DNA of 64,000 bases from an uncultured virus (IMG/VR IMGVR_UViG_3300027026_000009) (Duplodnaviria; Heunggongvirae; Uroviricota; Caudoviricetes): IMG/VR virus record IMGVR_UViG_3300027026_000009. One strand, given 5' to 3'. Below are positions 2,895-45,885 of this stretch, in pieces. The position numbers and the translations under genes were made by a program. Each line of letters opens with the position of its first letter. Position 1 is the first letter of the stretch. Below the pieces are notes generated by a model. The model made no database searches and was not told where the DNA came from. It saw only the letters and a program-made list of their open reading frames with translations.

Positions 2895-3143
2895 ATGAAA
2901 AATCAAATGGACAATTCAATTGACACTAAAATCGTAAAATTTGGTAAGCGGGAAGCTGAAATACTTAAAGCTTTACGAGACGGATTAAGAAATAGGGAAA
3001 TTGCTAAACGTTTAGACATTAATCAAAAAACCGTTTCTACTTACATAGGTAGGGCAAAAGAAAAATTAGGTCTTTCAAAAAAGGACAACACTTATAAGCT
3101 AGTTGTATATGCTTTGCCTTCATTAGAAATTAACCATAAATAA
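2895..3143 (+). CDS. LuxR/GerE-type HTH regulator
   Basis: REAEIL..L.DGL.NREIAKRL.I.QKTV.TY..R..EKLGL. Confidence 0.85.
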   Translation: MKNQMDNSIDTKIVKFGKREAEILKALRDGLRNREIAKRLDINQKTVSTYIGRAKEKLGLSKKDNTYKLVVYALPSLEINHK

Positions 3144-4098: not shown

Positions 4099-4208
4099 TG
4101 GTAATTATATGCAAAAAGGTATAATTTTATTGAAACGACCATTAGTATATCTAAAAACATATAATCGGATTTTTTCCGATTAAGTAATTAAATTATAACA
4201 CTAAAATT

Positions 4209-10494: not shown

Positions 10495-10510
10495 AAAAAA
10501 CACTTTTTTT

Positions 10511-12064: not shown

Positions 12065-12152
12065 AGACGACATAGACTTTGACTATTTATTTGCTTTTAT
12101 AGGATTAGTAGGAGTAGTAATTTTCATTATTCTTGCAGTATTAGCCCCATAA
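12054..12152 (+). CDS. 32-aa single-TM peptide (not in ORF track)
   Basis: MNHKDDIDFDYLFAFIGLVGVVIFIILAVLAP. Confidence 0.5.
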   Translation: MNHKDDIDFDYLFAFIGLVGVVIFIILAVLAP

Positions 12153-12162
12153 ATTTGCAAAA

Positions 12163-12199
12163 GTCATACTTTTGACCTATATTTGAATTGTAATCAAAA
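12163..12199 (+). promoter_or_regulatory. Early-class promoter
   Basis: GTCATAC-TTTTGACC-TATATTTG-4nt-GTAATCAAAA. Confidence 0.8.
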
Positions 12200-12208
12200 C
12201 TTTATATT

Positions 12209-13308: not shown

Positions 13309-13959
13309 ATGACACTAAACAAATCTTTTTTTATTGGTATTCCTACCATAAATCGGGCAGACTTGCTCAATGACGCACTTGATAAATACGTGGATGACTT
13401 TCCGAATGTCGAAATTTTTATTGTTGACAATGGTAAACAAGATATTCCGCTTGAAAGACATGAAAGAGTTAATGTATGGCGATCGCAACAGAACTTAGGA
13501 GTTGCTAAATCTTGGAATCATATATTGTCCACTGGCTTTCTGGTAACGGATGCCGATCATGCACTGATCTTGAACGATGATATTTACTTGGGCTTGGATA
13601 AAAGCGCAATAGAAGATATGATAGGTGTAATGCTTACACAGAAAATAGATGTGCTTCAAGGCGAAAACCATTTTTGTTCTTTTATTATTAACCGTGACGT
13701 GTTTACAGCGTTGAACGGATTTGACGAGACTTTTTATCCCGCTTATTTTGAGGACAATGATTTTAGGTATAGGATGAAGCTTGCCAATAGGCACGTTGTC
13801 ACTACTTCAATGCTAACGCCAAAAGTTTACCGAAACAGCCAATCGATAGCCAAAGACCCGAACCTCAACCAAAGGTTTAATGTCAATAGAAATTACTATA
13901 TCCAGAAGTGGGGCGGTCAGCCAAATGAAGAAACCTATAAAACGCCATTTAATAAATAA
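13309..13959 (+). CDS. Glycosyltransferase family 2
   Basis: IGIPT.NR, IVDNG, NLGVAKSWN, LILNDD, GFDE.FYPAYFEDND. Confidence 0.9.
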   Translation: MTLNKSFFIGIPTINRADLLNDALDKYVDDFPNVEIFIVDNGKQDIPLERHERVNVWRSQQNLGVAKSWNHILSTGFLVTDADHALILNDDIYLGLDKSAIEDMIGVMLTQKIDVLQGENHFCSFIINRDVFTALNGFDETFYPAYFEDNDFRYRMKLANRHVVTTSMLTPKVYRNSQSIAKDPNLNQRFNVNRNYYIQKWGGQPNEETYKTPFNK

Positions 13960-16822: not shown

Positions 16823-18169
16823 ATGACAAAAGACACTAAAAGAACACCAATGAAAGTAGTTAAAAACGACAAGAAGAAACCTTATGGGCTTACGGCTGAT
16901 GAAGCTATCAAGAACCTTCAATTATCGCTTTCGGAAAAGGATGAACTCAATAAGTACAAAACAGTATTGATTCATGCTGATTGGAATTGCGCCACTGGAT
17001 TCGGTATGGTAATGAAAAAGTTGATGGAACAATGGCTGAAGAACGAAAACTGGATATTTTTCATACTTGGAATAAACGACCCAACTGGAAAGGAATATGA
17101 AGAACATGAGCGTATCTATGTATTTCCCGCTTTGCCCAATGATGATAACAACGAACCTTTTGGGCGTATAAAGCTATTGCAGAAGCTTTATCTGCTAAAC
17201 GTTGACTACCTTTTTTGCCTTAATGACCCAGAAGTTCTAAATCCTATCGGTAAGGAACTTGACAAAATCAATAAAAAGAAGAAAAAGCAAGGTCGAAAAC
17301 AGTTCAAGTCGGTCGCTTATATGCCAGTTGACAGCGAGATTAGACCAGTAGATGCCGACAAGCTTGCTTGGTTCGATGAAATATGTACCTATACTCATTA
17401 TGCAAAGGTCAACTTCCAGAACGTCCTTAAAAAGTCAAAGGAAATTCACGTTGTACCACATGGTATGGATCCTAAAGATTTTTTCGAGGATAAGAAAGGT
17501 CGTGAAAAGGCTCGTAAAAAGCTATTGGGCAAAAATCACAACGACAAATTCCTTATTGGAACTGTCAACCGTAATCAACCTAGAAAGGACGTAGGAACGT
17601 TGCTTTTGTCGTTTAAAGAGTTTCTGAAGTCAGAACCCGAAGCTATTCTGTACCTTCACATGAACCCGACTGATAGTGTAGGTCTTAATATAGAAAGGGC
17701 TTGCAGTAGAATTGGTTTGAAATATAGAACCAATGTTTTAGTGCCAAAAGATTTTAACGAAAACGAAGGTGTAAGCTTGAAAGAGTTGAACGACATCTAT
17801 AATGCTATGGATTGTTTTGTTACCACTACAACGGCTGAAGGATGGGGATTGACCGTTACCGAAGCTATGGCGACAAAGACACCAGTTGTATGTCCATTGC
17901 ACACTAGCTTGCCAGAGGTCACTGGTCTTGGCAATGTTTTTGGATATACCAATCTCGAAGAAAGATTTTTTGTGCATGATTACGAGAAGGTGCGCTATGT
18001 AAGCGACCCTATGGTGGTTGCCCATAACATTTTTAAGGTTTATGAAATGCTGAACGGAAATAGCAAAGCAAAACAGAAGCTTTCTAAAAAGGTGCATGAA
18101 GCGCAAAAATTTATCTATAAACGACAATGGAAGCAAATTGCGGATTATATGTTTAACTTATTTAATTAG
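16823..18169 (+). CDS. Glycosyltransferase family 4 (GT-B)
   Basis: TGFG, VPHG.D, NRNQPRKD, EGWGL...EAMA (EX7E). Confidence 0.9.
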   Translation: MTKDTKRTPMKVVKNDKKKPYGLTADEAIKNLQLSLSEKDELNKYKTVLIHADWNCATGFGMVMKKLMEQWLKNENWIFFILGINDPTGKEYEEHERIYVFPALPNDDNNEPFGRIKLLQKLYLLNVDYLFCLNDPEVLNPIGKELDKINKKKKKQGRKQFKSVAYMPVDSEIRPVDADKLAWFDEICTYTHYAKVNFQNVLKKSKEIHVVPHGMDPKDFFEDKKGREKARKKLLGKNHNDKFLIGTVNRNQPRKDVGTLLLSFKEFLKSEPEAILYLHMNPTDSVGLNIERACSRIGLKYRTNVLVPKDFNENEGVSLKELNDIYNAMDCFVTTTTAEGWGLTVTEAMATKTPVVCPLHTSLPEVTGLGNVFGYTNLEERFFVHDYEKVRYVSDPMVVAHNIFKVYEMLNGNSKAKQKLSKKVHEAQKFIYKRQWKQIADYMFNLFN

Positions 18170-19760: not shown

Positions 19761-20176
19761 CAACTAAGACAATACTTAAAGGTTTAGGTGGTTTTGCCCT
19801 TACTGCGGGCGTGGGCTACTTGCTTTACCAATTACTGAAAAAGCAACCTAGAAACTTCAGTGAAGTTATAGACGAAACAAAAAGAACCATACAATCAGTA
19901 CCTAAAGGTGTTCAGACCGTGGTTACTGGTAAATATCAAGAATGTGGATTCCCGCTTAAAAAATGGTGCGGTGGCGAAAACGTCAAGAAACTGCAACGTT
20001 GGTTGAACAACGAAGGTCGTTATGATCTGGTTGTCGATGGAAAATTTGGTATTCTTACGGAAAATGCTGTTATAGACAATCAAATGCCATTTACTGCGTT
20101 CAAGGATATGCACCCATACGCTGTAAAGGGTCAAGTTTCAGAGGAATTTTTCAACCTTTTCATAAAGAATGCTTAA
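19757..20176 (+). CDS. Membrane-anchored peptidoglycan-binding protein
   Basis: TM; PL...G.NVKKLQRWLN...VDGKFG..TE.AV. Confidence 0.8.
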   Translation: MTTKTILKGLGGFALTAGVGYLLYQLLKKQPRNFSEVIDETKRTIQSVPKGVQTVVTGKYQECGFPLKKWCGGENVKKLQRWLNNEGRYDLVVDGKFGILTENAVIDNQMPFTAFKDMHPYAVKGQVSEEFFNLFIKNA

Positions 20177-20855
20177 AAACCGTGTACATCAAGATTTGGT
20201 GATTTTCACAATAGGCGGTCTTTTGGGGCTAGTCGGCATTTACTTTGTCATTAGAAAGAAAAATCCAGTGGCAAACAAAGCCGTTAAGCTTGCAGAGGAC
20301 GAATGGAAGCTATGGGGAAATCAATCAATGAATGAGTACGGACGTATAACAAAGGAAGGGAAAAAAGAGTATGACCAAGGGTTTGCAGAACGAGTAGGCG
20401 ACTATTGGCGTGAAGCTTTGGGCTTGAACTACAATGGAAATAATCGTGATGTCGCTTGGTCGTCCGCTTTTATCTCTTGGCTTTGGAAAAAGGCGGGTGC
20501 GGGCAAAGACTTTAAATATTCCGCTTCGCATAGCAATTACATTTATGATTCGGTATTGAACCGTTGGGATAATGACCTCAAAGCACCTTTTGTGGCTTAC
20601 AGACCATATGAAGCAGTACCAGAGGTAGGCGATATGGTTTCGTATTCCAGACAAGACCAACAAGACTTATATGCAACTCCCGCACCTTACAAATCACATA
20701 CGGACTTAGTGGTTGACAAGGGCGATGGCTACATCGATGTCATTGGCGGAAATGTAAGTCAAGGCGTTACAAAAAGACGCTTACGAACCGATAGTAAAGG
20801 TTTCTTAGCTGATACTAGAAACAAATGGTTCGCTGTTATTAAGACAAATATTTAG
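20169..20855 (+). CDS. Membrane-anchored DUF2272 (CHAP-like) protein
   Basis: WSSAFISW, S.SH..YI, P.VGDMV, SHTDLVV, IGGNV. Confidence 0.75.
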   Translation: MLKNRVHQDLVIFTIGGLLGLVGIYFVIRKKNPVANKAVKLAEDEWKLWGNQSMNEYGRITKEGKKEYDQGFAERVGDYWREALGLNYNGNNRDVAWSSAFISWLWKKAGAGKDFKYSASHSNYIYDSVLNRWDNDLKAPFVAYRPYEAVPEVGDMVSYSRQDQQDLYATPAPYKSHTDLVVDKGDGYIDVIGGNVSQGVTKRRLRTDSKGFLADTRNKWFAVIKTNI

Positions 20856-20930
20856 TATTTTTTGGTGTTTCTAGAACTTAATCGTACCTTTAACCAGTAC
20901 AATCAAGTTTAATAATCAAAATCATTTTCT

Positions 20931-21227
20931 ATGGCACGACCTTTAGGAATAGGTAAGGACATCATATCCCTTAGATTGAAGGGTTACAACTACAATCAAA
21001 TTGCACGTGCGCTCGATTGCGCCAAAGGAACTGTCCAATATCATTGCGAAAAGCAAGGTCTTACCGATATTGGGTACAATAAAGGCAGAATATCACCAGA
21101 AATACAGAAAGCCATTTTTGAGTATGCACAGAAACATACCAAAAAAGAAACGGCTGAAAAGTTCATGGTGTCATTGAGTACCGTAAAGAAATATGCAAAA
21201 AAGAAGCCAGATGATACAATTAAGTAG
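20931..21227 (+). CDS. Tandem HTH DNA-binding protein
   Basis: GYNYNQIARALDCAKGTVQYH and TKKETAEKFMVSLSTVKKY. Confidence 0.8.
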   Translation: MARPLGIGKDIISLRLKGYNYNQIARALDCAKGTVQYHCEKQGLTDIGYNKGRISPEIQKAIFEYAQKHTKKETAEKFMVSLSTVKKYAKKKPDDTIK

Positions 21228-21296
21228 ATCTGGCTTTCAAGTTTGTAATCAAAAACATTATATGGCTCAACAGAACGTTGAGATATGAATGTAGAT
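21197..21296 (-). ncRNA. Candidate small RNA 1, antisense to the early leader
   Basis: Minus-strand TATATTTG at 21308-21301, CTCAAC/GTTGAG hairpin, seed UUUUUGAUUACA, terminator stem 21204-21236 plus U-tract. Confidence 0.6.
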
Positions 21297-21347
21297 GTTA
21301 CAAATATAACCTAAAATGATATAACTGACCTAATTTTATGATGTATA

Positions 21348-22247
21348 ATGTCTAAAAAGCCCAAAAATAACTTACCGCAGTACAACGGAACAAAGGTCTT
21401 TCAAAAGGTTGCCCAAAGGGTAAAAGAAGAAAGGTTAAAGCGTGAAGGGCGTGATAAACTTCGATGGGGCGAGTGGAACGAGATACAAAAGCTTGTTAAG
21501 CAACGTAAATTAGCAGAACCTTTTTATGGTACAAGTTACAAGAAAGTCGATGTCGCACTTGTTGACAGCTATATTGAAAACAAGGTACTTGAACCTACGC
21601 AAATAGACTGTGGAAACCCATTTGCACTTAATATAGTAGATTACACTGGTGTCGAATGGTACGATATAGATAATGTCGTAAAGGAACTTCCAGATAACCT
21701 TAACATAAACGTAAATTTTGGGTCGCTAGGTCAGCTTGGAATCAAAAAGAGGGCTTTTTACGATTATAGCGATATAAGGGGAATGTTTGAAGAACTAAGG
21801 GAAATAGCCAATAACCAGTCTGGTGAGTTTTTCTTTGACGCTACAATACGAAAAATAGACCCAAATAAGCCCGATGACGATCTTTGTAATCTTTTTGTTG
21901 AATTTGCATTAACGCAAGGCGGACAAGCCGTTCCATCGCAAGGTTCTGACGCTGATTTTGTCGTTCCGCTTTCGGATGAAGAAGTGAAGCAAGCTAAAAA
22001 ACGTGCTGAACTTATTAAGAAGCTAAAGAAAAAGCGTAAACCAAAAAAAGCCCCAAAGACAGAACCGAAGCCAGAACCAAAACCTAAACCTAGAACGGAC
22101 AGTGATAAAACGGCAAGGTTAAAAGCTTTTGATTCAATCCAGAAAAATGCACTGAAATCTTTTGAATTGGGCTTGATCAGCAAAGCGGAATACCGCAAAC
22201 TGATAAAAGACGCACAACGAAATCTTGAAAAAGGCGGACAAATATAA
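21348..22247 (+). CDS. Basic Lys/Pro-rich protein ending in LEKGGQI
   Basis: ORF; carries the GG motif of the giant proteins; adjacent to the PolB-like gene. Confidence 0.7.
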   Translation: MSKKPKNNLPQYNGTKVFQKVAQRVKEERLKREGRDKLRWGEWNEIQKLVKQRKLAEPFYGTSYKKVDVALVDSYIENKVLEPTQIDCGNPFALNIVDYTGVEWYDIDNVVKELPDNLNINVNFGSLGQLGIKKRAFYDYSDIRGMFEELREIANNQSGEFFFDATIRKIDPNKPDDDLCNLFVEFALTQGGQAVPSQGSDADFVVPLSDEEVKQAKKRAELIKKLKKKRKPKKAPKTEPKPEPKPKPRTDSDKTARLKAFDSIQKNALKSFELGLISKAEYRKLIKDAQRNLEKGGQI

Positions 22248-22284
22248 TGTTCATTGACACTGAACATCTTTAAATATTGAACTA

Positions 22285-23058
22285 ATGGAAGAAAACGATT
22301 GGCAAAAAGAACACCCTAATTTAGTGGTAAGGGAAACAAAGTTTAAGCACGTCAAGTTGGAATATTTCTTGGATGCGCTGAAAAAGAAGAACATTCCTTA
22401 TTACATGACCAAAAGCGAACAGATGGCTAAGGTCATAGCTAACGGAAAGGAACACGTATTTAGACTGAAAAAAACATTTCCCAACGATAAAATGTGGCTG
22501 TTTGCAAGGGTAAAGGCGGAAGCGGAAGCTTGGGTCGAGAAAAACCCAAACTTTATCGTTCCAGATTGGTTTAAACCTTCAGTACCGTTAAATGAGGACT
22601 ATTGCGATCCAGACGCAGAGGACGACCTAATAGGTCTGGACGTTAAACACGCTTTTTGGCGCATTGCCTTTACAAGCGGTATCATAAGCGAGAATACGTA
22701 CAAAGCGGGTACACGTGAGGATTGCAAGGCAATACGCTTGGCTTGTTTATCCGTTTTGGGTCGCCAAAAATCGTATCAACCTTATGTCAATGGTTACAAG
22801 TCTGGCGACAGAGTTGTGATAAGACCAGAGAACAAGCGTTTGCGGGAAGTTTTTCATTACATACGCCATAAATGTTACGGTTATATGTCCAATATAGCCG
22901 AAAGGTTAGGTGATGAATTTTATTCCTATCGGGTCGATGAAATCATCTTTAAAAACACCGATGAAAATTTAGAAATGGTGATGAAGTACCTTGATAGCAA
23001 GGATTTGATCTATGAACCAATGTACATAGACGATGAAGAAAATGACGAAGAAGAATAG
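22285..23058 (+). CDS. Minimal family-B DNA polymerase palm-like protein (no exonuclease)
   Basis: Degenerate motif A (IGLDVKHAFW), B (KAIRLACLSVLG) and C (YSYRVDEIIF) in the correct order. Confidence 0.45.
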   Translation: MEENDWQKEHPNLVVRETKFKHVKLEYFLDALKKKNIPYYMTKSEQMAKVIANGKEHVFRLKKTFPNDKMWLFARVKAEAEAWVEKNPNFIVPDWFKPSVPLNEDYCDPDAEDDLIGLDVKHAFWRIAFTSGIISENTYKAGTREDCKAIRLACLSVLGRQKSYQPYVNGYKSGDRVVIRPENKRLREVFHYIRHKCYGYMSNIAERLGDEFYSYRVDEIIFKNTDENLEMVMKYLDSKDLIYEPMYIDDEENDEEE

Positions 23059-23072
23059 CTAAAACCAAAAAT

Positions 23073-23381
23073 ATGACAACAATTGACGAAAAGGATTTAC
23101 AGCCTTTTGACCAAAAGGATAAAGAGAAAGATTATATCGTAAGCCACTTCAAGGAAAAGGGTAAGTATTATCTTTTTTTAAGTCCTAGAGAGGTAAAGCC
23201 CGAACTTAAAAGCAAAATGTACAGATTCGGTGTATTTATAGATTCAAAACCGTATTGGCTGAACGAAGGAAAATATGTTACCTATGACAGAGCCATTGCA
23301 AAGCAAACTTATCTTTCTTTGGTCGAAAAATACGGCAGAGAAGAAGATAAAAGCGTGGTTATTTTTATGGCAAAAAAATAA
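23073..23381 (+). CDS. Hypothetical protein
   Basis: ORF; N-terminal PFDQKDKEKDY. Confidence 0.65.
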   Translation: MTTIDEKDLQPFDQKDKEKDYIVSHFKEKGKYYLFLSPREVKPELKSKMYRFGVFIDSKPYWLNEGKYVTYDRAIAKQTYLSLVEKYGREEDKSVVIFMAKK

Positions 23382-23439
23382 GGAAGCCCGAAGGCTTCCC
23401 CACTACTAATGAAATTTCCAATTGACACTAAAATTGGTT
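23372..23439 (-). ncRNA. Candidate small RNA 2
   Basis: Minus-strand TATTTTTA at 23451-23444 with late box at 23493; hairpin loop UUAGUGUC; GGAAGCC-UUCG-GGCUUCC terminator. Confidence 0.6.
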
Positions 23440-23533
23440 ATGGTAAAAATAATTAGCATTTAGGGGATAAGGGCTTCTTTTTTTAAATTTAAGTACAATA
23501 AATGACACTTGTAGCACAAAATCTGCAAGAATT

Positions 23534-23824
23534 TTGATTATGAATAATTCTGGTAAGCTAAAACTATACAGATATTACTTTAGAAACGCTGATAAACCTA
23601 TCACGATGGAAGCTTACAGTTTCAACCAAGCTAATGCGATGATGAACGAACTAGCCTTAAAGTCAAACGGTAAGGTTGACCTAAACGAAATAAACAATTT
23701 CACGGTAGAAGTTCCTTTACGTGGTGTTTCAAAAAAAATATACAAAGGTATAGAATGGGTCTGGGTTGGTCTAGATAAAGCTGAAAAGGGTTGGATGCCG
23801 ACAAGTGAATTTAATAAGCTATAA
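23534..23824 (+). CDS. Hypothetical protein
   Basis: ORF. Confidence 0.6.
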   Translation: MIMNNSGKLKLYRYYFRNADKPITMEAYSFNQANAMMNELALKSNGKVDLNEINNFTVEVPLRGVSKKIYKGIEWVWVGLDKAEKGWMPTSEFNKL

Positions 23825-24048
23825 TGAGCAACGAAAGTTATGTTAAGCAACTTATAGAGATTACAAGGTCGGATATTGACTACTTTGTTGATTACCGAAA
23901 TAGGCTTGCTATGTATATTGTAAGCTTGAACGATAGGTACGCTTACAAAAGGGTAAATGCTGAAAAAATGCTGTCTTTACTTAAAGAACTTCAAGATATA
24001 ACGGTAAAAATCAATAATTTGCGCAGAAGTATTGGTGATTTTGAGTAA
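23824..24048 (+). CDS. Hypothetical protein
   Basis: Operon ORF. Confidence 0.6.
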   Translation: MSNESYVKQLIEITRSDIDYFVDYRNRLAMYIVSLNDRYAYKRVNAEKMLSLLKELQDITVKINNLRRSIGDFE

Positions 24049-24057
24049 ATTAGTGCT

Positions 24058-24375
24058 ATGAAAAAGAATTTAGATGTAATCCTATTACTAAGTGCGGTTG
24101 GTGCGACAGCTTTTTACGTTTTTTATCTTAAACCACGTCTAAAGCAACGTGAAAAAGAAAAAAGTGAAGAAAAATTTATGCAAGATGTACAAGATGTAAG
24201 GGATGGTAAAAAAACAGCTACCGAAGTATTTGGCGATAATTTTGCCCTCTACGGCTACACTAAAAGCGGGATGCCATGCTATGTACCGCCTTGTGGAATG
24301 TATGATGCTTATAGCAACTTACCCGCAAACCAAGAATTTTTAGATACATTAAAGAACAATGCGACCAATAGCTAA
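24058..24375 (+). CDS. Single-TM membrane protein with CxVPPC motif
   Basis: N-terminal TM; PCYVPPC. Confidence 0.65.
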   Translation: MKKNLDVILLLSAVGATAFYVFYLKPRLKQREKEKSEEKFMQDVQDVRDGKKTATEVFGDNFALYGYTKSGMPCYVPPCGMYDAYSNLPANQEFLDTLKNNATNS

Positions 24376-24664
24376 AATAGCGATAACGGTAGGTGTCGTT
24401 GGCGCAATTGGCGTTATCGACTACTATTATCCAGAGATAAAGAAATGGTGGGAAAAGCGTTCTATGGAACGTAAAAAAGCTATTGCGGGTAAAGTTTTGG
24501 ATGGCGAAATGGACTTTAAAGATATGCTTGATAACGGTGTCTCAATGATGATCCTAAACCAAGTCAAAAATGAGCGTGAACAAGCTGAAGCAAAAGCAAA
24601 GTTTGAATCTACGATAAAAAACGCTTTAGAAAATATTGATAGTTCCAGAACGGTCAAAGAATGA
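24359..24664 (+). CDS. Single-TM membrane protein
   Basis: N-terminal TM. Confidence 0.6.
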   Translation: MRPIAKIAITVGVVGAIGVIDYYYPEIKKWWEKRSMERKKAIAGKVLDGEMDFKDMLDNGVSMMILNQVKNEREQAEAKAKFESTIKNALENIDSSRTVKE

Positions 24665-24964
24665 CAAAAGTTCTGTGGCATAGATAAAATTACCGATAGT
24701 CCAATACCTACCTACGCCAGTTGTCTGTAAAAGTGCTACGACATCCTTTGTGCTTTTTGGATTACTGTTTGGAAAGTTGAAAGTGCCACTAGCGGTAGAA
24801 TATACCATGTTTGCGCCAGTGAACGGTTCGGCTGATAAATCCCATACTACCAAAACATTGCTTATTCTGGTGTTGTTGCCAGTAGCGGGCGACCCAAAAA
24901 TACTAACTGGTGCGTCAACGGTGCTATTGTTTATAAGCTTTAATGTAATTTCGTCCGAGTTCAT
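24626..24964 (-). CDS. Beta-rich virion protein candidate
   Basis: N-terminal ITLKLINNSTVDAPVSIFGS resembles the first strands of 40463..41161. Confidence 0.55.
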   Translation of the reverse strand: MNSDEITLKLINNSTVDAPVSIFGSPATGNNTRISNVLVVWDLSAEPFTGANMVYSTASGTFNFPNSNPKSTKDVVALLQTTGVGRYWTIGNFIYATELLSFFDRSGTINIF

Positions 24965-24965
24965 C

Positions 24966-25412
24966 CTATTTCTTTAATATCAAATATACGGCTGTTAAAG
25001 CCAAAGCACCAAATAGCCATTTATTGACTTGCGGTGAGGTCAAGTCCGTATCAAGTATCTTAGAAACCATATGTTCGCAGTTATTGTTAACTATATGGTA
25101 TTTTTTGTCCTTTAGGACATCCGCCATTTTACTGATGTCATCTTGGGTCAAGTCCGTGTTTTTTATTGATACGATTTCACGACCTTTTGCATACTTTTTA
25201 AAATCCTCGACAACTAGGTTGCCACCAAATACGTTCGATAAGCTTTGTTGGTTGTGGTAAAACAGAATTTCATCCCCGCTTCTTACGATAAAGCCATAAT
25301 GGTATATTATTGGCATTACGTCAGCCTTCAGCTTAACCAAATCACCAGTCTTTAGATTGGCTATGTGATTTTCTTTTACGGTAGATTTTAAAAGTTCTGT
25401 CTTTATGGTCAT
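24966..25412 (-). CDS. LRAT/HRASLS-like permuted papain-fold enzyme with C-terminal TM
   Basis: GDLV...YHYG...FYH...Y....NNCEH. Confidence 0.8.
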   Translation of the reverse strand: MTIKTELLKSTVKENHIANLKTGDLVKLKADVMPIIYHYGFIVRSGDEILFYHNQQSLSNVFGGNLVVEDFKKYAKGREIVSIKNTDLTQDDISKMADVLKDKKYHIVNNNCEHMVSKILDTDLTSPQVNKWLFGALALTAVYLILKK

Positions 25413-25414
25413 AA

Positions 25415-25900
25415 CTATTTTTTTGTAATATCAAGTTCGATTTTATCGTCATAGCCCTCGAAAAAACCATAGTCGTTCATAAAGTCGATCAAGTTCTGAT
25501 TAAGCTTGTCGTTCATAAAGTCGGCATTGTTTAATGTAAGAACGTTGAAAACCATATAAACACTACTGTTAGCCTTTACAAAGTAATCAATAGTTGTCCG
25601 TCCATTGAGTACATAATCATTACTGTCCATTTTTATATTCAGCGTTGACTGGTACTGTGTTGGGTCAACGGTCGGGATTACATCCTTGGCTTGTGCATTT
25701 CCGTTTACGTCAAATTTATAAAGTCGTAAGGTCTGTAAAATCTGGTCAACGTCATTGGCTTGTACGTATATTGACTTTACGGCATAGATATTTCCCGCCA
25801 TACTTTGCAGTATTTCTTCGTATGTCGTGCTGTCTTGCGAAACAATATCGACATACTTGTTATTTCCGAATAACTGATTTGTAGGTATATGCAGTGCCAT
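25415..25900 (-). CDS. Paralog of the putative major capsid protein (second/minor capsid protein)
   Basis: TYEEIL...YVQ...QILQTL....DVNGN.....IPTVDPTQYQST aligns with 40463..41161. Confidence 0.65.
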   Translation of the reverse strand: MALHIPTNQLFGNNKYVDIVSQDSTTYEEILQSMAGNIYAVKSIYVQANDVDQILQTLRLYKFDVNGNAQAKDVIPTVDPTQYQSTLNIKMDSNDYVLNGRTTIDYFVKANSSVYMVFNVLTLNNADFMNDKLNQNLIDFMNDYGFFEGYDDKIELDITKK

Positions 25901-26244
25901 TACTCATTCATTATTACTTTGTTCGTCTTTGGATCAACGGCTTGTAATTTTTTATCTTTCAATATGATTTTAACATTGTACTCTTTTAGCAATAGGTTCT
26001 GAAGCGCATTTGCGTCCTTTTGGGTTATATTGTCATCTAGACCTTTTCTCATGGCGTTAATTGCCGTTCTAGCGTTTGTCTTGGTCATTACGTCATTTTT
26101 ATCACCTTCCAACGGTTCTGAAGTTCTCATTGATTTTATGTCGTCAATAGTTCCAAAAATGCTAGAGTTCTTTGGTCTTAAAAAGAACAATAGGACTAAA
26201 CCTAATCCTAGAGTTATAAACAATGTTTTTTCTTGCTCGTCCAT
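25900..26244 (-). CDS. Single-TM membrane protein
   Basis: N-terminal TM. Confidence 0.7.
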   Translation of the reverse strand: MDEQEKTLFITLGLGLVLLFFLRPKNSSIFGTIDDIKSMRTSEPLEGDKNDVMTKTNARTAINAMRKGLDDNITQKDANALQNLLLKEYNVKIILKDKKLQAVDPKTNKVIMNE

Positions 26245-26245
26245 A

Positions 26246-26572
26246 TTATCTTTTTCTACTAATAAATATCAATACGCCAAAAACCACCACTGCCAAAGAT
26301 AGAACTACAACGGACTTTGACTTTTGTTTTGATGTCTCGACCTTTAATTGATTGTTTCTTTCAAGTGCCATTGCTTGAAACAATATACGCTGACGCTCTA
26401 TTTCGCTCTGTGCTTTTATCAATTGGCTTTCAAGCTTTCTAGCTTGTTCCAGTTCCAGTCTTGCGACAAATTGTTGCAATTGCTGTTGTTTCCTTGCATC
26501 GCTTTCACGGATCAAGGTCTGCCCTAGCATGGTAAGTCCTTGTGACGCTAAATTTGTAACATTAATTGCCAT
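26246..26572 (-). CDS. Coiled-coil protein with C-terminal TM
   Basis: TM plus basic tail. Confidence 0.7.
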   Translation of the reverse strand: MAINVTNLASQGLTMLGQTLIRESDARKQQQLQQFVARLELEQARKLESQLIKAQSEIERQRILFQAMALERNNQLKVETSKQKSKSVVVLSLAVVVFGVLIFISRKR

Positions 26573-26933
26573 TTCTCTCTAGTTTTTGGTTGATTTGATA
26601 CACTTGGTCACTGGTTCTGGTCTGAAGGTCTTTGTTGACGCTATCTATTTTATGTACGTGATTTCGGGTATCTCTTAAATCTTTTGTGTTCTGGTCTATT
26701 TTTTTTCCTTGCTCTACCATAAGCTTAACCAAGGTGTCCAACTGGTGTTGCTGTTTGTATTTTTCAACCTCGGTAGGTATATTCTGTGTTGCCTTTATGG
26801 TATCGACCTTTTGGTTTAAGTCATCAAATGTCAAGTTCCATTTGCTGAAAATTGCAAATAGACAAGCCACTAAAACGGAAGCACCGCTAATGTACCCTAT
26901 GATTTCGCCAAATGACCTTTTACCGTTGCTCAT
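26562..26933 (-). CDS. TM plus coiled-coil protein
   Basis: N-terminal TM. Confidence 0.7.
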   Translation of the reverse strand: MSNGKRSFGEIIGYISGASVLVACLFAIFSKWNLTFDDLNQKVDTIKATQNIPTEVEKYKQQHQLDTLVKLMVEQGKKIDQNTKDLRDTRNHVHKIDSVNKDLQTRTSDQVYQINQKLERNGN

Positions 26934-27463
26934 TACCCTTCTTTTATCAATACCGTACTACTGTAAATAATAGCTATTCCAAGCCCTATCGCTATCAAAT
27001 AGATATAAACGTTTTTTTGCCTTTCCGTGCTTTCGCCTTGTAGTGCCTTTCGATATTCCGTAAGACTGTTGGCTAAAATCCGTGTTCTTTCGGTTTCGCC
27101 CAACATTCGGATTTCTTCTTCCCCTAGCAAACGTTCCGTTTCAAGCTTTGCAAGCGTAATCCTCGCTTGAAGTTCCCTTTGCTTTTTTGCTTGCCTAGAA
27201 CCAATAATTGATGAAGCTAATGAAAGTGCGCCACCCACAACTGCGCCCGCAATATTATAGTCGGCATTGGCGTAAGCGGAATCAAAAGCTTCTATAAAAC
27301 TTTGGTCGCCACTTGCGATTGCATTTGCAGATTTATCTATAATTTCAGAAAGCGTTACCTTATCTGAAGTTCTGTAACCATTGTCATTCAAAATTTTGAC
27401 AACAACTTCTGGCTTATTGTAAATAAACCTAGAAAACCGCTCGATTTCTTGTGGTGCTTGCAT
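26933..27463 (-). CDS. Virion membrane protein (paralog family with 38786, 39392, 39986)
   Basis: Shared N-terminal V.K/R.IL...G helix, YANAD, C-terminal TM. Confidence 0.65.
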   Translation of the reverse strand: MQAPQEIERFSRFIYNKPEVVVKILNDNGYRTSDKVTLSEIIDKSANAIASGDQSFIEAFDSAYANADYNIAGAVVGGALSLASSIIGSRQAKKQRELQARITLAKLETERLLGEEEIRMLGETERTRILANSLTEYRKALQGESTERQKNVYIYLIAIGLGIAIIYSSTVLIKEG

Positions 27464-27481
27464 CCGAATAGTTTCTAAATG

Positions 27482-27555
27482 TAAAAATATTAAAAGCTTA
27501 AATGATATGTCTGTAAGACCAAGTTTTTAAGTGCAATAGTTTGTATTTGTTGCAC
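27482..27555 (-). promoter_or_regulatory. Late-class promoter with GTGCAA-N13-TTGCAC palindrome
   Basis: Palindrome 27531-27555; TATTTTTA 27489-27482 (offset 42). Confidence 0.65.
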
Positions 27556-27577
27556 TAACATTATCTTATTGTCTTTT

Positions 27578-28129
27578 TTATTCCGAAATTTTTCTTATTA
27601 GATAGTTGTACTCTGTCTTTATGAATCCTTTTGGGATATATTTATCATAAGGCGTAAACAAAAGTGAGCCTACCCTCATATTGCTTCCAACGTGACATAC
27701 GTATTCATAAAAACCGTCCTTGATAGGACGGTACATATAGATAAAATCAAAGCACCTATAAAAGCTATCTGGAAGGATTCTTATATCGGCACAATCGCAA
27801 TCGTATTCCGAAAGCAGTTCAAAAAATTTCGGTTCAAAATCTATTCCAGTGACTTGTGCGCCTAATTTTTTAGCAAACCTAAGGATCTGTCCAGTACCGC
27901 ACCCTAAGTCCAAGAATTTCATTTGCGGTTCGACATTGTTGTATATCGTTTTTAAATGGACGTAAGAACTAGGAAAATTGCCCCAAAAGGGCAAAAGTGA
28001 ATCTTTCTGAATAAAATTTTTAACTTCCAGATATTTAATGAAAAAACGGTAGTCATCGGTTAAAGACTTTAAGCTTGGCTTATAAACCTTATGGCAATGG
28101 CTCTGGTTCTCCGCCACCTTCACTTGCAT
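27578..28129 (-). CDS. Class I SAM-dependent methyltransferase
   Basis: FLDLGCGTG, VTGID, ADI, FDFIYMYRP; start uncertain. Confidence 0.85.
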   Translation of the reverse strand: MQVKVAENQSHCHKVYKPSLKSLTDDYRFFIKYLEVKNFIQKDSLLPFWGNFPSSYVHLKTIYNNVEPQMKFLDLGCGTGQILRFAKKLGAQVTGIDFEPKFFELLSEYDCDCADIRILPDSFYRCFDFIYMYRPIKDGFYEYVCHVGSNMRVGSLLFTPYDKYIPKGFIKTEYNYLIRKISE

Positions 28130-31660: not shown

Positions 31661-31674
31661 AACCTAAATAAAGG

Positions 31675-31748
31675 TAAATTTATAAAATCCATATCAATTT
31701 AAAATATTACAGACCAACTCTAAGTGCTAAAACGATCGTTTTAGACAT
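31675..31748 (-). promoter_or_regulatory. Late-class promoter
   Basis: GTGCTAAA at 31724; TAAATTTA 31682-31675 (offset 42). Confidence 0.55.
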
Positions 31749-32499: not shown

Positions 32500-32898
32500 C
32501 TAATAACCAATAAGTGCCAAATGATTAGCTAATGATATATTAAAGACCGATTCGCTACCATCAAAAACCGCAAGCCCAACTTTTTCGTTGCGGTTGAATA
32601 GAAAAACACTTATATCCTCTTTTTTTATGTCGTGTTTTTCCATATAGTAAAGAAGTGACTGTTTTAAGACTGGCACTGAAAGTGCTTCAAGTCCTAGTAG
32701 GTCAAGCTTCTTGTTTAGTATGTACTTAAAGTCAACCTTTTTATAAGGTTGCCAACCGTGGCACATTTTATAAACCAAATCATTTGTGTCTGGCTTAAAA
32801 CTAATATTTATTTGAGCGTCCTCTGTCGGAATGTTCTGTTCATTTGCGAACTTTTGCATTCCGCCCAACATTATCTTTCTGGTCTTTGATTCAATCAT
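32500..32898 (-). CDS. Hypothetical protein
   Basis: ATG 32898 follows a TACATTTG box. Confidence 0.65.
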   Translation of the reverse strand: MIESKTRKIMLGGMQKFANEQNIPTEDAQINISFKPDTNDLVYKMCHGWQPYKKVDFKYILNKKLDLLGLEALSVPVLKQSLLYYMEKHDIKKEDISVFLFNRNEKVGLAVFDGSESVFNISLANHLALIGY

Positions 32899-36263: not shown

Positions 36264-36695
36264 TTACTTAACTTTGTTCATTCCTCTAGTGGCGACCGTT
36301 GCGCCAATGTCAACAACTTCTTTTCGGACTTTGGGTTTTGTACCCAATTGCCAAAAGAAAACACCAAGGCTCACTGCGAAAACAGTTCCAAGCCCAAGGC
36401 TTATCCACTTATAATATTCAAAGATGTCACCGAAATAGCCCGCAGTCTTTTTTCCAAAATCTGCAAACGTACCAAGCACGTTACCGCTAATTTCTATTCC
36501 GTACTTTTCCATTTCCAACCTAAGTTCTGACGTGTTCGCATCAGAATTGGAAGCGTCTTGCGCTGACCAAGCCATTGCAAAAATGCTATTGGCTTGCTTT
36601 ACTGAAAGTGTTTTACGCAAGTCTTTGTACCAATTAATCCAAACGATGTCGTCTGAATTTCTGGTCGGTATGTTTTGTACAGATTGATAGGACAT
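36264..36695 (-). CDS. Membrane protein
   Basis: TM near the C-terminus. Confidence 0.7.
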   Translation of the reverse strand: MSYQSVQNIPTRNSDDIVWINWYKDLRKTLSVKQANSIFAMAWSAQDASNSDANTSELRLEMEKYGIEISGNVLGTFADFGKKTAGYFGDIFEYYKWISLGLGTVFAVSLGVFFWQLGTKPKVRKEVVDIGATVATRGMNKVK

Positions 36696-36703: not shown

Positions 36704-36970
36704 TTATTTAGTGTTCATGCACTTTTTCATTTCATTTTGATAAAAGGCATCACGTTGTTCTGGCGATCCAAAACGCATTGTCATCATTAGCTTTCTTACG
36801 GCTTGGTCACAATTCATCTCCGCCTTTCCGTTTTCATTTTTTTTTTCGGTTGAAACTTCTTCAGCATCAACCTCTACATCTTCGCATCCGCAATCTTTGC
36901 CCCTCATTTTGTTCCATGCAAAGGCAAGTCCAAATCCAACGGCTAATCCTATTAATAAATCTCTTTTCAT
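36704..36970 (-). CDS. Single-TM protein with CGC motif
   Basis: N-terminal TM. Confidence 0.65.
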   Translation of the reverse strand: MKRDLLIGLAVGFGLAFAWNKMRGKDCGCEDVEVDAEEVSTEKKNENGKAEMNCDQAVRKLMMTMRFGSPEQRDAFYQNEMKKCMNTK

Positions 36971-41443: not shown

Positions 41444-42268
41444 TTAAACTATAAAATCTCGTAAAATTCTTTCCCGTACGGCTTGGTAAGCTGTTTCTGC
41501 CGTGTATTTTTTTTCACCAGTCTTGGTAATTTGCTGAAGCATTGGATTGATAATAGTGCGATAGTTTCGGCTTATGTATTCTTCGATAGCCACTTCTACA
41601 TCCTCTTTGGTGAATGCACCACGCAATTTTTCGTTGTCAATATCTACCCATAAGAAAAACCTTCTGTCGCCATTGGAGTATTTTTTATTGACGATCAATT
41701 CCGCAATCTTTAGGTATTCGTATTTGTCCTCGAATTTATGGCGGTGCTTATCAACGCTATCGGTGTTCTTGTGAAAGCGTATCATATTTAGGTTTTGCCA
41801 GATTTTTGAGGTCACACGTCCAATAGACTGAAAGTGCATTATAATATCTAGGTCGTTGTGACGGTTCGTACATATTGCACCAATTACGTCATTTGGAAGC
41901 ATATCAGAAATATACTTATTAATGTCCTCAATCAATAAAAGACCGCCACTATAATTTTGTAAGATATGGAAAAGGCATTCTTGAATGTCACGCATGGTCA
42001 TTTTGCGACCAGTATCTTCACGGAACGGTCTTATCCTTCGGGCTTCGATTTTTGGGTGGGCTGAAAATTTAAGTACGTCTCTAAGGCTTAAAGCCTTGAC
42101 ATGAGTAAACTCGTCATTTACGTCAAGTATCAAAACCTTTCGACCTTTTACGCCCTTTGAAGGGTTGCCTATCATGTAATCTCGGAACTGTTCGTTTGTT
42201 TCCCAAGTTTTACCTACACCCTTTTTTCCTACTGCGACTACAAGTAATGGTTCTCTAAATTCTGACAT
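41444..42268 (-). CDS. FtsK/HerA-superfamily genome packaging ATPase (A32/P9-like)
   Basis: Walker A GKKGVGKT, Walker B LLLIED, Arg finger NRH, IIMHFQ motif, compact 274 aa. Confidence 0.8.
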   Translation of the reverse strand: MSEFREPLLVVAVGKKGVGKTWETNEQFRDYMIGNPSKGVKGRKVLILDVNDEFTHVKALSLRDVLKFSAHPKIEARRIRPFREDTGRKMTMRDIQECLFHILQNYSGGLLLIEDINKYISDMLPNDVIGAICTNRHNDLDIIMHFQSIGRVTSKIWQNLNMIRFHKNTDSVDKHRHKFEDKYEYLKIAELIVNKKYSNGDRRFFLWVDIDNEKLRGAFTKEDVEVAIEEYISRNYRTIINPMLQQITKTGEKKYTAETAYQAVRERILRDFIV

Positions 42269-42269
42269 A

Positions 42270-43310
42270 CTAACTGTTTTTTGCTACATCGTCCATATGT
42301 TTTAAAGCTTTTTCATCACCAAGTTTAGGCATATTGTCTGGAACTTCGGCATCCTCAAAAGTAGAATCTGTTTCAATTTCTATTTCTTCAAATGATGTTG
42401 TTTCTGGCGCACTTGATTCTTCATATTCAGAAAATTCATCTACCACTGGCTCATTTGGTGTTGGCTGAATGTCTGGCGAACCGTCACCATCTGGTGATGG
42501 TTTTGGCGGTGGTGTTGATTGATCGCTAGAACTGCTTTTAGGCTGACCGCCCGACCTCATGTATTCAGTCTGCGCCCTCATTTCGCTTAAAATCATATTA
42601 CTATTTCTTTTAAGGGCAAAAGCGGTTGCACCTTTTTGTACCAAGTCCGTACCAAAATAATAAGCCAACAATTGTTCATCGGTCATTCCGACACCTCGTT
42701 TTTTGAATACACGAACCAATGGCGGTTTTACTTTATCGATAAATTCCTTATCAGTCTCAAAGGCTTCTTTAGTTTCTTTATTGTACTCATTGACCCAAGT
42801 ACGTATGTTTGCCGAATTACCGTTCTGGTCTATCGGCATTTGAATATCTGGATTTATGTTACCGTCAGCGATTTCCCTTTCAAGTGCTGTTTCATTTATT
42901 TCGCAAACCTTACCTAGAAGGTTTCCTAGCTTTGAGTAACCGTCCAAAGCAACATCCGCCATCATTTCAGCACCTACTGTTTTGTCCTTGTCGCTTAAAT
43001 CGTGAAATTCTTGATTGAACTTAGGTGATTCATCGTCTTGTTTTTGGTACGACTTTTCTTGACTGTTTGACTGATTACTATTGCTAGGGCTTCCGCCAGT
43101 AGGGTCGTTTTCCATAGAAAAACTGTCAAGGTCTGGCATTTTAAAAGTAGGTTCGGCTATTTCGGCTTCCAAAGTGCTAGGGTCAATATTTGGTTTAGTG
43201 TATTCCCTATCTTTGGGTTGTGCATCAAAAGGCGACCAGTTCTCTTGCTCTATTTGCTCAAAATCAACCGTTGCTTCCTTGTCTTTGCTATTTTTATTTT
43301 TCTTTGCCAT
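42270..43310 (-). CDS. Acidic low-complexity protein adjacent to the ATPase
   Basis: ORF; shares a motif with 8007..9347. Confidence 0.7.
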   Translation of the reverse strand: MAKKNKNSKDKEATVDFEQIEQENWSPFDAQPKDREYTKPNIDPSTLEAEIAEPTFKMPDLDSFSMENDPTGGSPSNSNQSNSQEKSYQKQDDESPKFNQEFHDLSDKDKTVGAEMMADVALDGYSKLGNLLGKVCEINETALEREIADGNINPDIQMPIDQNGNSANIRTWVNEYNKETKEAFETDKEFIDKVKPPLVRVFKKRGVGMTDEQLLAYYFGTDLVQKGATAFALKRNSNMILSEMRAQTEYMRSGGQPKSSSSDQSTPPPKPSPDGDGSPDIQPTPNEPVVDEFSEYEESSAPETTSFEEIEIETDSTFEDAEVPDNMPKLGDEKALKHMDDVAKNS

Positions 43311-43890
43311 TGTAGTTTAGTATAAAGTCAATTAGTAATTCCTTAGCTTTTAAGTGTTTCTTAAAAATGCTGTTTTCCCTTGGGTGCTTAAAATCCAATT
43401 TTAGTATCTTATTCTTATGTCTGGATATTGCCCAAGTATTCTTTTTTGTCAATTTATTAATATCTGCGACCGAAAAGTTTAAATAGGTAATCATTAAATG
43501 GATTACAGAACCACTCGCATAAATACGCTTGCCGTCACGGTTCTTGTCATCTAAAATTACTTGTCTGGGAAGGTCATAAAGACGTTCGACAATTTGAAAT
43601 ATCTTTTCGGTAACAATTTCAGATTTATCTATCCAGTTGAAGTCATTGTATAAATAATTGGTATCACACTGCAATAAATAAACCGCTTGGTCAATATTTT
43701 TATGGTCTATAAACTTCACGCATTTATCAAAAGCTTCTTTTACCGTTCCCTCAATTCCGCATCTGTGATCCAAATGTTCGGTAAGCCCTTTTTCAGACAA
43801 GTTGTAATAACTTAACATGAAAGAAACGGTATCAATGCCAAATTGCTTAATGTTTTCATTCAATACATTAAATAGTTTCTCATTGCTCAT
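43294..43890 (-). CDS. Protein with DnaA C-terminal-like HTH
   Basis: IFQIVERLY.L....IL...R...R.YA......L......S..DI...TKKN..AI. Confidence 0.5.
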   Translation of the reverse strand: MSNEKLFNVLNENIKQFGIDTVSFMLSYYNLSEKGLTEHLDHRCGIEGTVKEAFDKCVKFIDHKNIDQAVYLLQCDTNYLYNDFNWIDKSEIVTEKIFQIVERLYDLPRQVILDDKNRDGKRIYASGSVIHLMITYLNFSVADINKLTKKNTWAISRHKNKILKLDFKHPRENSIFKKHLKAKELLIDFILNYNGKEK

Positions 43891-44540
43891 TAGATATTGT
43901 ATTTTTTGAGAAACTCTTTGTTCGATATAATCCTATCAGCGACCTTTTCTGCAAATGCAATGTCGGATTGGTAATTATTGCCAAGATATAGACGGCTATT
44001 CTTTATAGCTTCCTTTATTTGCATAAACTTTTCGTAATCGTCTGGAATTAAATTACCTAAAACCTCACAGAATACACACCCTAGTACCACAGTTCTACTT
44101 GGATATGATGGTGTGTCGTTTCTGTAATTGCTTATTGGGAATAACTTAACTTTTGTGTTGGAAGCAAACTGGTTTGGGCGTATTCGCTTAAAATAATATT
44201 TAAGCTTTACGATGATCGGGTCGATGTCATCTGCTAATTGCTGTATCTTTCCCATAACATCCACTCGTGGTGATTTTGCCGTGTTGTAGAACCACTGCTC
44301 AAAGTTACGGTCAATCTTACTGTACATTAACAAAGCTTCTTCATTCTCGCTAAGTTGTATGTCGGTCAGCCTAACTATGGTGTCATTTACTTCTTGTATG
44401 GCTTTTTCGCCAGAAGGATAATTATAATCATCTTTAGCGAAATCAATAAAAACACTATCTAGGTAGTTGTTCTTCTGTATTAATTTCTGTTCGGCATAAG
44501 ATGGGTTTCCAAATTTTAGTGTGTCAATATTTAATTTCAT
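43890..44540 (-). CDS. Degenerate PAP2/haloperoxidase-fold phosphatase
   Basis: K.YFKRIRP, PSYPSRT, SRLYLGNNYQSD. Confidence 0.75.
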   Translation of the reverse strand: MKLNIDTLKFGNPSYAEQKLIQKNNYLDSVFIDFAKDDYNYPSGEKAIQEVNDTIVRLTDIQLSENEEALLMYSKIDRNFEQWFYNTAKSPRVDVMGKIQQLADDIDPIIVKLKYYFKRIRPNQFASNTKVKLFPISNYRNDTPSYPSRTVVLGCVFCEVLGNLIPDDYEKFMQIKEAIKNSRLYLGNNYQSDIAFAEKVADRIISNKEFLKKYNI

Positions 44541-45330: not shown

Positions 45331-45885
45331 TTAATTCTTTTTATACATTATAGCACCAAAGGTTACAACCGTAAGACCAACAGCTATAATTGCGCCCAAT
45401 AAACCCTTGCTTGATTTTGCGCTTTCTGAAGGTGGTTGGTTTTGCGTTCTGGGCTGTGGTTCGTTGCCCTCTTGCTTGCCTTCTTGACCGCCCTCTTGCT
45501 TGCCTTCTTGACCGCCCTCTTGACCGTTGTTTTGGGCTTGGGCTTGTGATTGCGCTTGGGCTTCCGCTTGTTTTCTTTTCCTTTCTTCTTCCTTTTCAGC
45601 TTCCTTTTGCTGACGCTTTTGTAAGTCCTTATATTCAAGGTCTAACAATTCGTTGAAGCTTACGGCTTCTTGATAAAGGTCAGCTTCAAGTTCTTGAAGA
45701 TTTTCTTGATTCAATTCAATTTCTTCTTCATCCATGTCCTCAAAACTCTCCTTTAGGTCGGCTATTCGGTTCTGAAGTCCTTTTATCTTATTGTATTCAC
45801 GCACAGCATGACTACTTAGGTTTTCCCTTTTTATCTTACCGATTAAAGTAAGCATTTCGTTTAGTGTCGAGTTTAATTTCTTCAT
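45331..45885 (-). CDS. Coiled-coil protein with QEGG/QEGK repeats and C-terminal TM
   Basis: ORF; repeats at about 45466-45524. Confidence 0.7.
   Translation of the reverse strand: MKKLNSTLNEMLTLIGKIKRENLSSHAVREYNKIKGLQNRIADLKESFEDMDEEEIELNQENLQELEADLYQEAVSFNELLDLEYKDLQKRQQKEAEKEEERKRKQAEAQAQSQAQAQNNGQEGGQEGKQEGGQEGKQEGNEPQPRTQNQPPSESAKSSKGLLGAIIAVGLTVVTFGAIMYKKN

Follow-up and report, generated by a model that had tools for sequence, protein, structure and literature searches.

What does a terminator do on a strand that has no gene? In the 64,000-nt DNA of an uncultured virus of the Caudoviricetes (IMG/VR record IMGVR_UViG_3300027026_000009; the window, by which we mean this whole stretch), the gap at 23382-23533, between the + strand genes 23073..23381 and 23534/23540..23824, carries a canonical intrinsic terminator on the minus strand, which has no gene at this place. 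Upstream of this terminator lies a short hairpin whose loop, UUAGUGUC, is the mirror of a start-associated tag, ACACUAAA. The single best fit to the evidence is a minus-strand RNA whose exposed loop and linker would pair with the start regions of about seven phage mRNAs, a reading that we hold tentatively and put at somewhat less than an even chance.

The unit comprises a seed hairpin, an AU-rich linker and the terminator (Table 1). The stem with loop UUAGUGUC and the UUCG terminator that an earlier note on this DNA had described are both present on the minus strand, U7 tract included. A GC-rich stem, a short loop and a U-tract, the hallmarks of intrinsic termination, are found together on that strand, with the terminator hairpin credited with 12 pairs (23404..23377) by a scanning tool and with -13.9 kcal/mol in a separate scan. 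Read on the + strand, this hairpin runs into CCACUACUAAUG and does not by itself make a terminator there; indeed, because that strand has an A-run upstream and no U-run downstream, the terminator serves the minus strand only. The flanking + open reading frames (ORFs) have coding scores of 0.35-0.49 per codon, and the minus ORFs there have scores of -0.15 to -0.25.

Folding of a 69-nt RNA from this strand (23440->23372) gave a predicted structure of -21.3 kcal/mol (z = -3.88; 0 of 200 shuffles as good) that consists of the seed hairpin, the linker and the terminator. The anti-tag UUUAGUGU is predicted to be exposed, with a mean unpaired probability of 0.81-0.84 across the five 5' ends tried, and the linker together with the 3' arm of the seed hairpin forms a 13-nt segment, UGGAAAUUUCAUU, that matches the start region of gene 32500..32898. 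Rfam returned 0 matches in the 64-kb window at the gathering score, and a relaxed search gave sub-threshold matches only, the best of which reached 22.7 bits against a cut-off of 58.7 bits and belonged to an unrelated family; no tRNA or tmRNA was found in the window. The unit thus belongs to no Rfam family. A nearly identical terminator module (an A-run, then GGAAGCCCGAA[A/G]GCTTCC) occurs at 23372-23399 and at 63364-63398, the latter copy being bidirectional. Just upstream of the 63364-63398 terminator, intergenic DNA at 63407-63442 holds a perfect 10-nt tandem repeat of 3.6 copies (TGAGAACTTT on the + strand).

Table 1. Positions of the minus-strand unit, its complementary sites and related features in the window, with divergence from a close relative
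Feature	Position	Strand	Details
Seed hairpin	23418..23437	minus	6-bp stem CCAAUU (23437->23432) / AAUUGG (23423->23418), 8-nt loop UUAGUGUC (23431->23424)
AU-rich 13-nt linker	23405..23417	minus	predicted single-stranded; contains CAU (anti-AUG)
Terminator hairpin	23382..23404	minus	GGGGAAGCC-UUCG-GGCUUCC (23401->23382); core GGAAGCC/UUCG/GGCUUCC at 23399->23382
Terminator U-tract UUAUUUUUUU (U7)	23372..23381	minus	overlaps last codons and TAA stop (23379-23381) of + gene 23073..23381
TATTTTTA box	23444..23451	minus (23451->23444)	7/8 match to Bacteroidota -7 box TAnnTTTG, lacking the final G and a -33 TTTG
16-nt exact complement of hairpin region	2917..2932	+	5' end of 82-aa GerE/LuxR-type helix-turn-helix (HTH) gene (2895..3143); duplex -18.6 kcal/mol
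11-nt complement	4198..4208	+	abuts ATG 4209 of DUF1508 (YegP-like) gene
10-nt complement	13310..13319	+	over start codon of GT2 gene
10-nt complement	16832..16841	+	+9..+18 of GT4 gene
13-nt complement to linker segment	32898..32910	minus	-12..+1 of ATG 32898 (gene 32500..32898)
11-nt complement	44512..44522	minus	+18..+28 of gene 43890..44540
9-nt complement	45860..45868	minus	+17..+25 of gene 45331..45885
8-nt core tag	36707..36714	minus	-19..-12 of gene 36264..36695
15-codon mini-ORF	23409..23456	+	ATG-to-tag spacing as at 2907 and 44540
Closing-stem element GGGGA-UAA-GGGCUUC + T7	23463..23484		complementary to 23382-23401
Second unit, inside + gene block	21197-21394	minus	full consensus promoter 21394->21362, 6-bp hairpin CUCAAC/GUUGAG, terminator 21236->21197
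Shared early promoter-leader cassette	228-294, 7601-7743, 10495-10555, 12065-12208, 63242-63448		TTTG-N19-22-TAnnTTTG, 4-6 nt, GTAATCAAAA, 0-10 nt, ATG
Close relative, most of region	20000-28000		6.5-8.6% differences
Close relative, gene left of unit			83/646 differences (12.8%)
Close relative, gene right of unit			45/328 differences (13.7%)
Close relative, unit	23344-23510		7/167 differences (4.2%), no indel

The five complementary sites named by the earlier note proved to be exact in every case, and an exhaustive search of the window added three further near-start sites, at 44512-44522, 45860-45868 and 36707-36714. Here and in all start-distance counts, gene starts are those of our own longest-ORF caller. 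Positions of the tag span -19 to +28 of the start codon, with five of seven within the first ten codons; the tag does not keep to a fixed slot a few bases upstream of the ATG, the position of a ribosome-binding site, and Shine-Dalgarno sequences were not found at the window genes. Copies occur in two reading frames (GAC-ACU-AAA and ACA-CUA-AAx) as well as in noncoding leaders, and the tag is therefore a nucleotide signal, not a peptide signal. Like the start-associated sequences (SAS) of mycobacteriophages considered below, it is a short asymmetric repeat that lies in the gene orientation (10 of 11 non-self copies) and at unrelated genes. Paralogy behind the shared 5' ends was considered and rejected, as the proteins starting at 44540 and 45885 gave no BLASTP alignment. 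Duplex folding of the RNA against start windows yielded meaningless structures with long loops and failed to distinguish starts from control windows.

The complementarity to start regions depends on the strand and is not random. In the window, GACACTAAA is present in 6 copies where 0.71 would be expected, a count attained by 0 of 100 shuffles. Besides the locus itself there are 11 copies of the 8-mer core ACACTAAA, 10 of them in the local gene orientation, and 7 of these 10 sense copies lie within 30 nt on either side of a start, the baseline being that 10.1% of sense positions lie near starts. Because start regions are A-rich and G-poor, we compared ACACTAAA with its 167 other same-letter permutations, which lie near starts in 16.7% of cases; relative to these, ACACTAAA has a binomial P of 2.7e-4 and stands at the top of the 168. 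The clustering at translation starts that had been proposed for the matches is borne out by this count, and a random placement is not what is seen. With one mismatch allowed, the 11-mer TGACACTAAAA has 7 near-start neighbors; only 11 of 119,584 distinct 11-mers reach at least 7, the ten besides TGACACTAAAA being A-runs or words that include ATG. The 66-nt core offers a perfect complement of at least 10 nt to 7 of 106 start windows, compared with a mean of 1.72 in 500 dinucleotide shuffles (P = 0.002), and RNA of the other (+) strand does so for 0 start windows. Among 127,920 windows of 41 nt, 448 (0.35%) score as well, and these are mostly gene starts or low-complexity runs themselves.

The tag is specific to the lineage of this phage. 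The AAA ATPase of the window has a relative at 50-52% identity in six IMG/VR viral contigs; the three of these that were fetched whole (73-102 kb, rated complete) each share 19-25 of the 107 ORFs of the window, which identifies it as phage DNA. The window is present in two marine metagenome runs, from which it may derive. By ORF calling and profile scans, it consists of densely packed small ORFs, mostly without family assignment, arranged in two convergent blocks, one on the + strand (1-24664) and one on the minus strand (24626-64000). In three related phages of similar base composition (G001-G003), the 8-mer occurs 6, 6 and 5 times, with 0, 1 and 1 copies near starts. The orthologues of the tagged GT2, GT4 and 44540 genes in these relatives have different, mostly shorter N termini without the tag, and their GT4 proteins lack the N-terminal stretch that holds 16832-16841. 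A general start-region bias of the phage group was therefore rejected as the origin of the tag, given that the three relatives are without it. In distant relatives we found neither the tag nor the neighbors of this unit. The flanking proteins 23073..23381, 23534..23824 and 22285..23058 have no close relatives in IMG/VR; none was found for 22285..23058 in metagenome contigs or for 21348..22247 in GTDB genomes, and DNA and protein searches of phage records likewise found none. Exact matches of the 20-mer that forms the seed hairpin were seen in 5 loci and read as chance. Of these loci, L001 and L003 represent a single 36,785-nt contig range that is present in two collections, long ORFs enclose L001 and L002, and in the other two the likeness to the window ends at 20-26 nt.

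Several observations weigh against an RNA that acts by pairing with these starts, beginning with the strength of the pairing itself. The seed hairpin alone is weak (-2.9 kcal/mol on folding), and most of the duplexes are 8-11 AU-rich pairs worth -6.7 to -11.2 kcal/mol. At +8 of two more genes there is a GACACCAAAA variant that places a C-A mismatch in the center of the seed; in a test of wobble tolerance these variant sites were not G-U compatible, which counts mildly against pairing, and the tag may instead be defined by a reader other than the minus-strand RNA. The statistics also soften under stricter nulls. ACACTAAA ranks 6th of 4741 8-mers, the higher ones containing ATG or belonging to upstream leader motifs, and this rank corresponds to ~0.1 after Bonferroni correction; a test that takes the best 20-nt segment in any 80-nt region antisense to its gene block gives P ~0.03. 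Overall, the start-bias signal is modest to good depending on the null, and modest under the stricter ones.

In addition, whatever is complementary to the minus-strand RNA by definition resembles the + strand, and the locus could therefore be a further copy of a tag that a protein reads, or what remains of a gene start. On the + strand, the locus presents an ATG, 9 nt, then ATTGACAC and the tag, a layout identical to that at the gene starts 2907 and 44540, and its likeness to the 44540 start extends over ~34 nt, ATG included. If an RNA-binding protein of the phage or its host reads the tag ACACUAAA on the + strand, the tag would be a translational operator or a cleavage site, as for T4 RegA and RegB, and the locus copy would be a + strand element of a polycistronic mRNA held in a stronger hairpin, serving as a decoy, a processing site, or a 15-codon leader ORF whose translation decides read-through into 23540-24664. 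This explanation accommodates the orientation of the locus copy, which is that of all tagged genes, with its ATG 12 nt upstream as at 2907 and 44540, and also the GACACCAAAA variants at +8. A precedent exists in the SAS of Cluster K mycobacteriophages, whose reader is given in passages of PMC3203893 as "RNA or protein." Folding lends it further support: a long closing stem (23382-23401 with 23463-23477) followed by a U-run is possible on either strand, with minimum free energies of -28.5 and -29.7 kcal/mol and z of about -2, and on the + strand this long-range stem with its U7 reaches -29.7 kcal/mol, compared with -21.0 kcal/mol for the local folds. On the + strand this stem would be a terminator with the mini-ORF in its loop, a possible attenuator. 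However, the local hairpin, being the first to form, would compete with the long stem. The start context of ATG 23409 is also poor, its score of -2.35 placing it at the 3rd percentile of true starts and below 97% of them, and the mini-ORF was rejected as a real gene on this ground. Moreover, scans of the window ORFs turned up no candidate RNA-binding protein, and a protein reader leaves unexplained the A-run that makes the hairpin a minus-only terminator. We judge it unlikely that a protein reads the tag on the + strand.

The origin of a minus-strand transcript is a second difficulty for the RNA reading. The earlier note had assigned the unit a late-class promoter with its box at offset 42, but the offset does not hold and the promoter is unsupported. 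The TATTTTTA box, a possible promoter from which transcription would start near 23439-23441, lies 66 nt from 23517; it has 22 copies in the window, 3 of them within 40 nt upstream of a same-strand start, and because of this abundance it is not promoter evidence. A full TTTG-N17-23-TAnnTTTG on the minus strand was not found near the locus, all 10 matches in the window lying elsewhere, and nothing bears on the timing that the label "late" implied. A search for RNA runs over 20000-28000 found none. The terminator could instead end read-through from the leftward block. The two gene blocks converge at 24626-24664, where the last genes overlap by 39 nt, which leaves no room for a terminator, and there is one on neither strand; convergent transcripts should overlap by at least several hundred bases. 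A consensus promoter (25013->24981) that drives the last leftward gene points toward the unit, and from the point where the leftward block ends (24626) down to 23404 the minus strand has no other terminator; that of the unit is the first that transcription from 25013->24981 would meet. Antisense-oriented terminator-like hairpins also stand in intergenic gaps of the three relatives (1, 5 and 2, compared with 3 in the window), and orphan terminators were for this reason rejected as proof of sRNA (small RNA) genes.

These findings fit a plain terminator that would stop leftward read-through or stray antisense transcription, with the start-like stretch being what is left of a gene 5' end after truncation or recombination and having no regulatory link to the tagged genes. 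The recurrence of the terminator module at 63364-63398 fits this view, as does the make-up of the 27-nt locus core: two stretches identical to the 5' ends of other genes, of 13 nt and 16 nt, together cover it, as boundary recombination would leave. A neutral remnant, however, should diverge at least as much as its flanks. We compared the window over 20000-28000 with a close relative (~90% identical), represented by contigs from two runs of one sample, and the unit differs at 7 of 167 positions while the flanking genes differ at 13-14% (Table 1). This low divergence points to constraint on the intergenic unit, although the piece of the relative's contig that carries the unit has about half the depth of its neighbors and may be one of two variants, a further point against the RNA reading. 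A relic also leaves the lineage-specific start bias of the tag unexplained, and it would have to be by coincidence that the 6-bp stem encloses precisely the core of the tag. We consider a terminator with a relic beside it unlikely, if slightly less so than a protein reader.

The perfect 6-bp arms and 8-bp spacing of CCAATT-N8-AATTGG also resemble dimeric HTH sites, and this 20-bp inverted repeat might be a DNA operator bound by a small HTH protein (2895..3143 or 20931..21227), with the start-proximal copies as weaker operators that block transcription. The 82-aa protein has a GerE-type HTH (2e-13 in the profile scan), and the 16-nt match, the best second site, falls inside its gene 2895..3143, which would fit autoregulation. 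Yet both arms occur at the locus only, the shared core is asymmetric with 10 of 11 copies in the gene direction, and many of the tagged starts are internal to operons, away from any promoter. The spread from -19 to +28 also fits a ribosome footprint better than a promoter, and we regard an operator as very improbable. Both HTH proteins are very small, that at 2895-3143 (82 aa) being of the GerE/LuxR and sigma region-4 type and that at 20931-21227 (98 aa) containing two HTH motifs.

A second minus-strand unit (21394->21197; Table 1) is a better-defined sRNA candidate than the 23372-23440 unit. Several window genes are preceded by Bacteroidota-type promoters (TTTG-N19-22-TAnnTTTG) and then by a shared leader, GTAATCAAAA; the promoter consensus is as given in passages of PMC7366714. 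The second unit contains the exact mirror of this early leader, matching those of genes 295, 7744, 10556, 12209 and 63241 over 10-14 nt. A leader-like copy at 21243-21258 has no proper -7 box. Of the 10 consensus promoter matches in the window, about 6 appear fortuitous, and at that frequency a promoter at most 160 nt upstream of an orphan terminator, and in the right orientation, is unlikely to arise by chance (by our estimate, <1%). The promoter-terminator arrangement of the second unit thus raises the prior that the phage makes such RNAs, with the caveat that intergenic DNA is enriched in leader-like sequence anyway. It suggests that the phage uses them and is not independent proof for the 23372-23440 locus.

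A third antisense-oriented terminator of the window lies on the + strand at 31661-31765, in a gap of the minus block, and consists of a palindromic stem around AAAACGATCGTTTT followed by UUUAUUUU (-14.6 kcal/mol). In two distant relatives, an antisense-oriented hairpin with a U-run is conserved at G002 55589 and G003 45688 (L018 and L024), between orthologues of 42270..43310 and 41444..42268; in the window these genes abut without a gap. Elsewhere in the minus block, a 2049-aa ORF (46308-52457) combines RelA/SpoT (E = 3.6e-14) and Zeta-toxin/AAA_33 kinase (E = 2e-25) domains and resembles the proteins called "polyvalent" in phages and conjugative elements; in G001-G003 its relatives match over ~300 residues only.

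Returning to the RNA reading, the sequence itself provides a terminator and a hairpin, a loop that is predicted to be exposed, exact complementarity with a bias toward starts and a lineage-specific tag, and from these we infer minus-strand transcription here, a stable RNA, pairing and repression. The minus strand of the 23382-23533 gap would yield a small RNA that ends at the UUCG-loop terminator, with its 3' end at ~23372-23378. This RNA could be a primary transcript of ~65-70 nt that starts near 23439-23441 after the weak -7-like box, or the 3' end of leftward transcripts running through from the minus gene block. We leave its 5' end open, as a 3'-end fragment of a read-through transcript could still act as an RNA regulator. 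The body of the RNA would mirror a typical start region of the phage, with the loop UUAGUGUC and adjacent stem bases pairing with the tag ACACUAAA and the linker contributing an anti-AUG. Its targets would be at least 7 phage genes in which the tag lies between -19 and +28 of the start codon, and 8-16 nt of pairing would block 30S binding and lower translation of the set, in hosts that are presumably Bacteroidota-type cells, without Shine-Dalgarno pairing and without Hfq. Of the multi-target repressor RNA that had been proposed for this locus, the terminator, the predicted loop exposure and the start-biased complementarity are retained, and the promoter and the late expression are not. More broadly, the phage might run part of its expression program through a set of "anti-start" RNAs, with 23440->23372 directed against ACACUAAA at 7 or more starts and ~21355->21197 against the early-gene leader GUAAUCAAAA, forming an RNA-only translational switch that needs neither Shine-Dalgarno sequences nor Hfq; this extension we find improbable as matters stand.

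Phage sRNAs that control the phage's own genes have been described in a few enterobacterial phages (P1 c4, lambda OOP and P22 sar); none is known to us in Bacteroidota phages, and non-exhaustive literature searches listed none. The c4 antisense RNA of P1 and P7 is, like the candidate, phage-encoded, and uses short displayed segments to pair with the ribosome-binding region of the phage's own mRNA and block translation. The c4 RNA is excised from a precursor and controls a single operon, located downstream of the c4 gene, whereas the candidate would act on at least 7 dispersed genes on both strands; the candidate has no gathering-score Rfam match, and the host phylum differs. The c4 RNA, with the CI RNA of P4, is named in passages of PMC12197685. 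As described there, lambda OOP and P22 sar are short RNAs directed against the surrounding operon that, like the unit, have their own intrinsic terminator and overlap the 3' end of a neighboring gene. They act in cis by long perfect pairing, whereas the candidate would act in trans through 8-16 nt seeds, and the OOP promoter is documented (PMC12197685), whereas that of the candidate is putative.

Closer in phylum is GibS of Bacteroides thetaiotaomicron, an Hfq-independent sRNA that pairs at start regions (PMC7366714). In the passages of that source that describe it, GibS shares with the candidate a Bacteroidota setting, an intergenic position and an intrinsic terminator, and it represses several mRNAs devoid of Shine-Dalgarno sequences, pairing across their start codons. 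In contrast to the candidate, it is host-encoded, is ~145 nt long, and has an extended single-stranded 5' seed and a mapped transcription start site (PMC7366714); no sequence or Rfam relation links it to the unit. The SAS/ESAS elements of Cluster K mycobacteriophages resemble the tag in being short asymmetric repeats, nearly always in one orientation, at the starts of a subset of unrelated genes (PMC3203893). According to the same passages of that source, they are 13 bp, GC-rich, contain a Shine-Dalgarno-like AGGAG and lie 3-7 bp upstream of the ATG, whereas the tag is 8-11 nt, AU-rich, placed from -19 to +28 and often within the first codons. Finally, T4 RegA, a translational repressor, and RegB, an endoribonuclease, are each a single phage factor that shuts off a class of genes by acting at the start regions of many phage mRNAs, but these factors are proteins, and no RegA or RegB homologue was found among the 106 distinct window ORFs scanned.

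Bacteroidota translate without Shine-Dalgarno pairing, which raises the question of how a phage times the translation of gene sets in this phylum. If the RNA reading is true, an RNA that mirrors a start-region tag would be a simple answer to the timing of translation and a portable gene-silencing tool for Bacteroidota. It would also suggest what might read start-associated sequences, a class that has lacked a functional explanation since 2011. Should the reader be a protein instead, the tag would still be a new start-associated signal.

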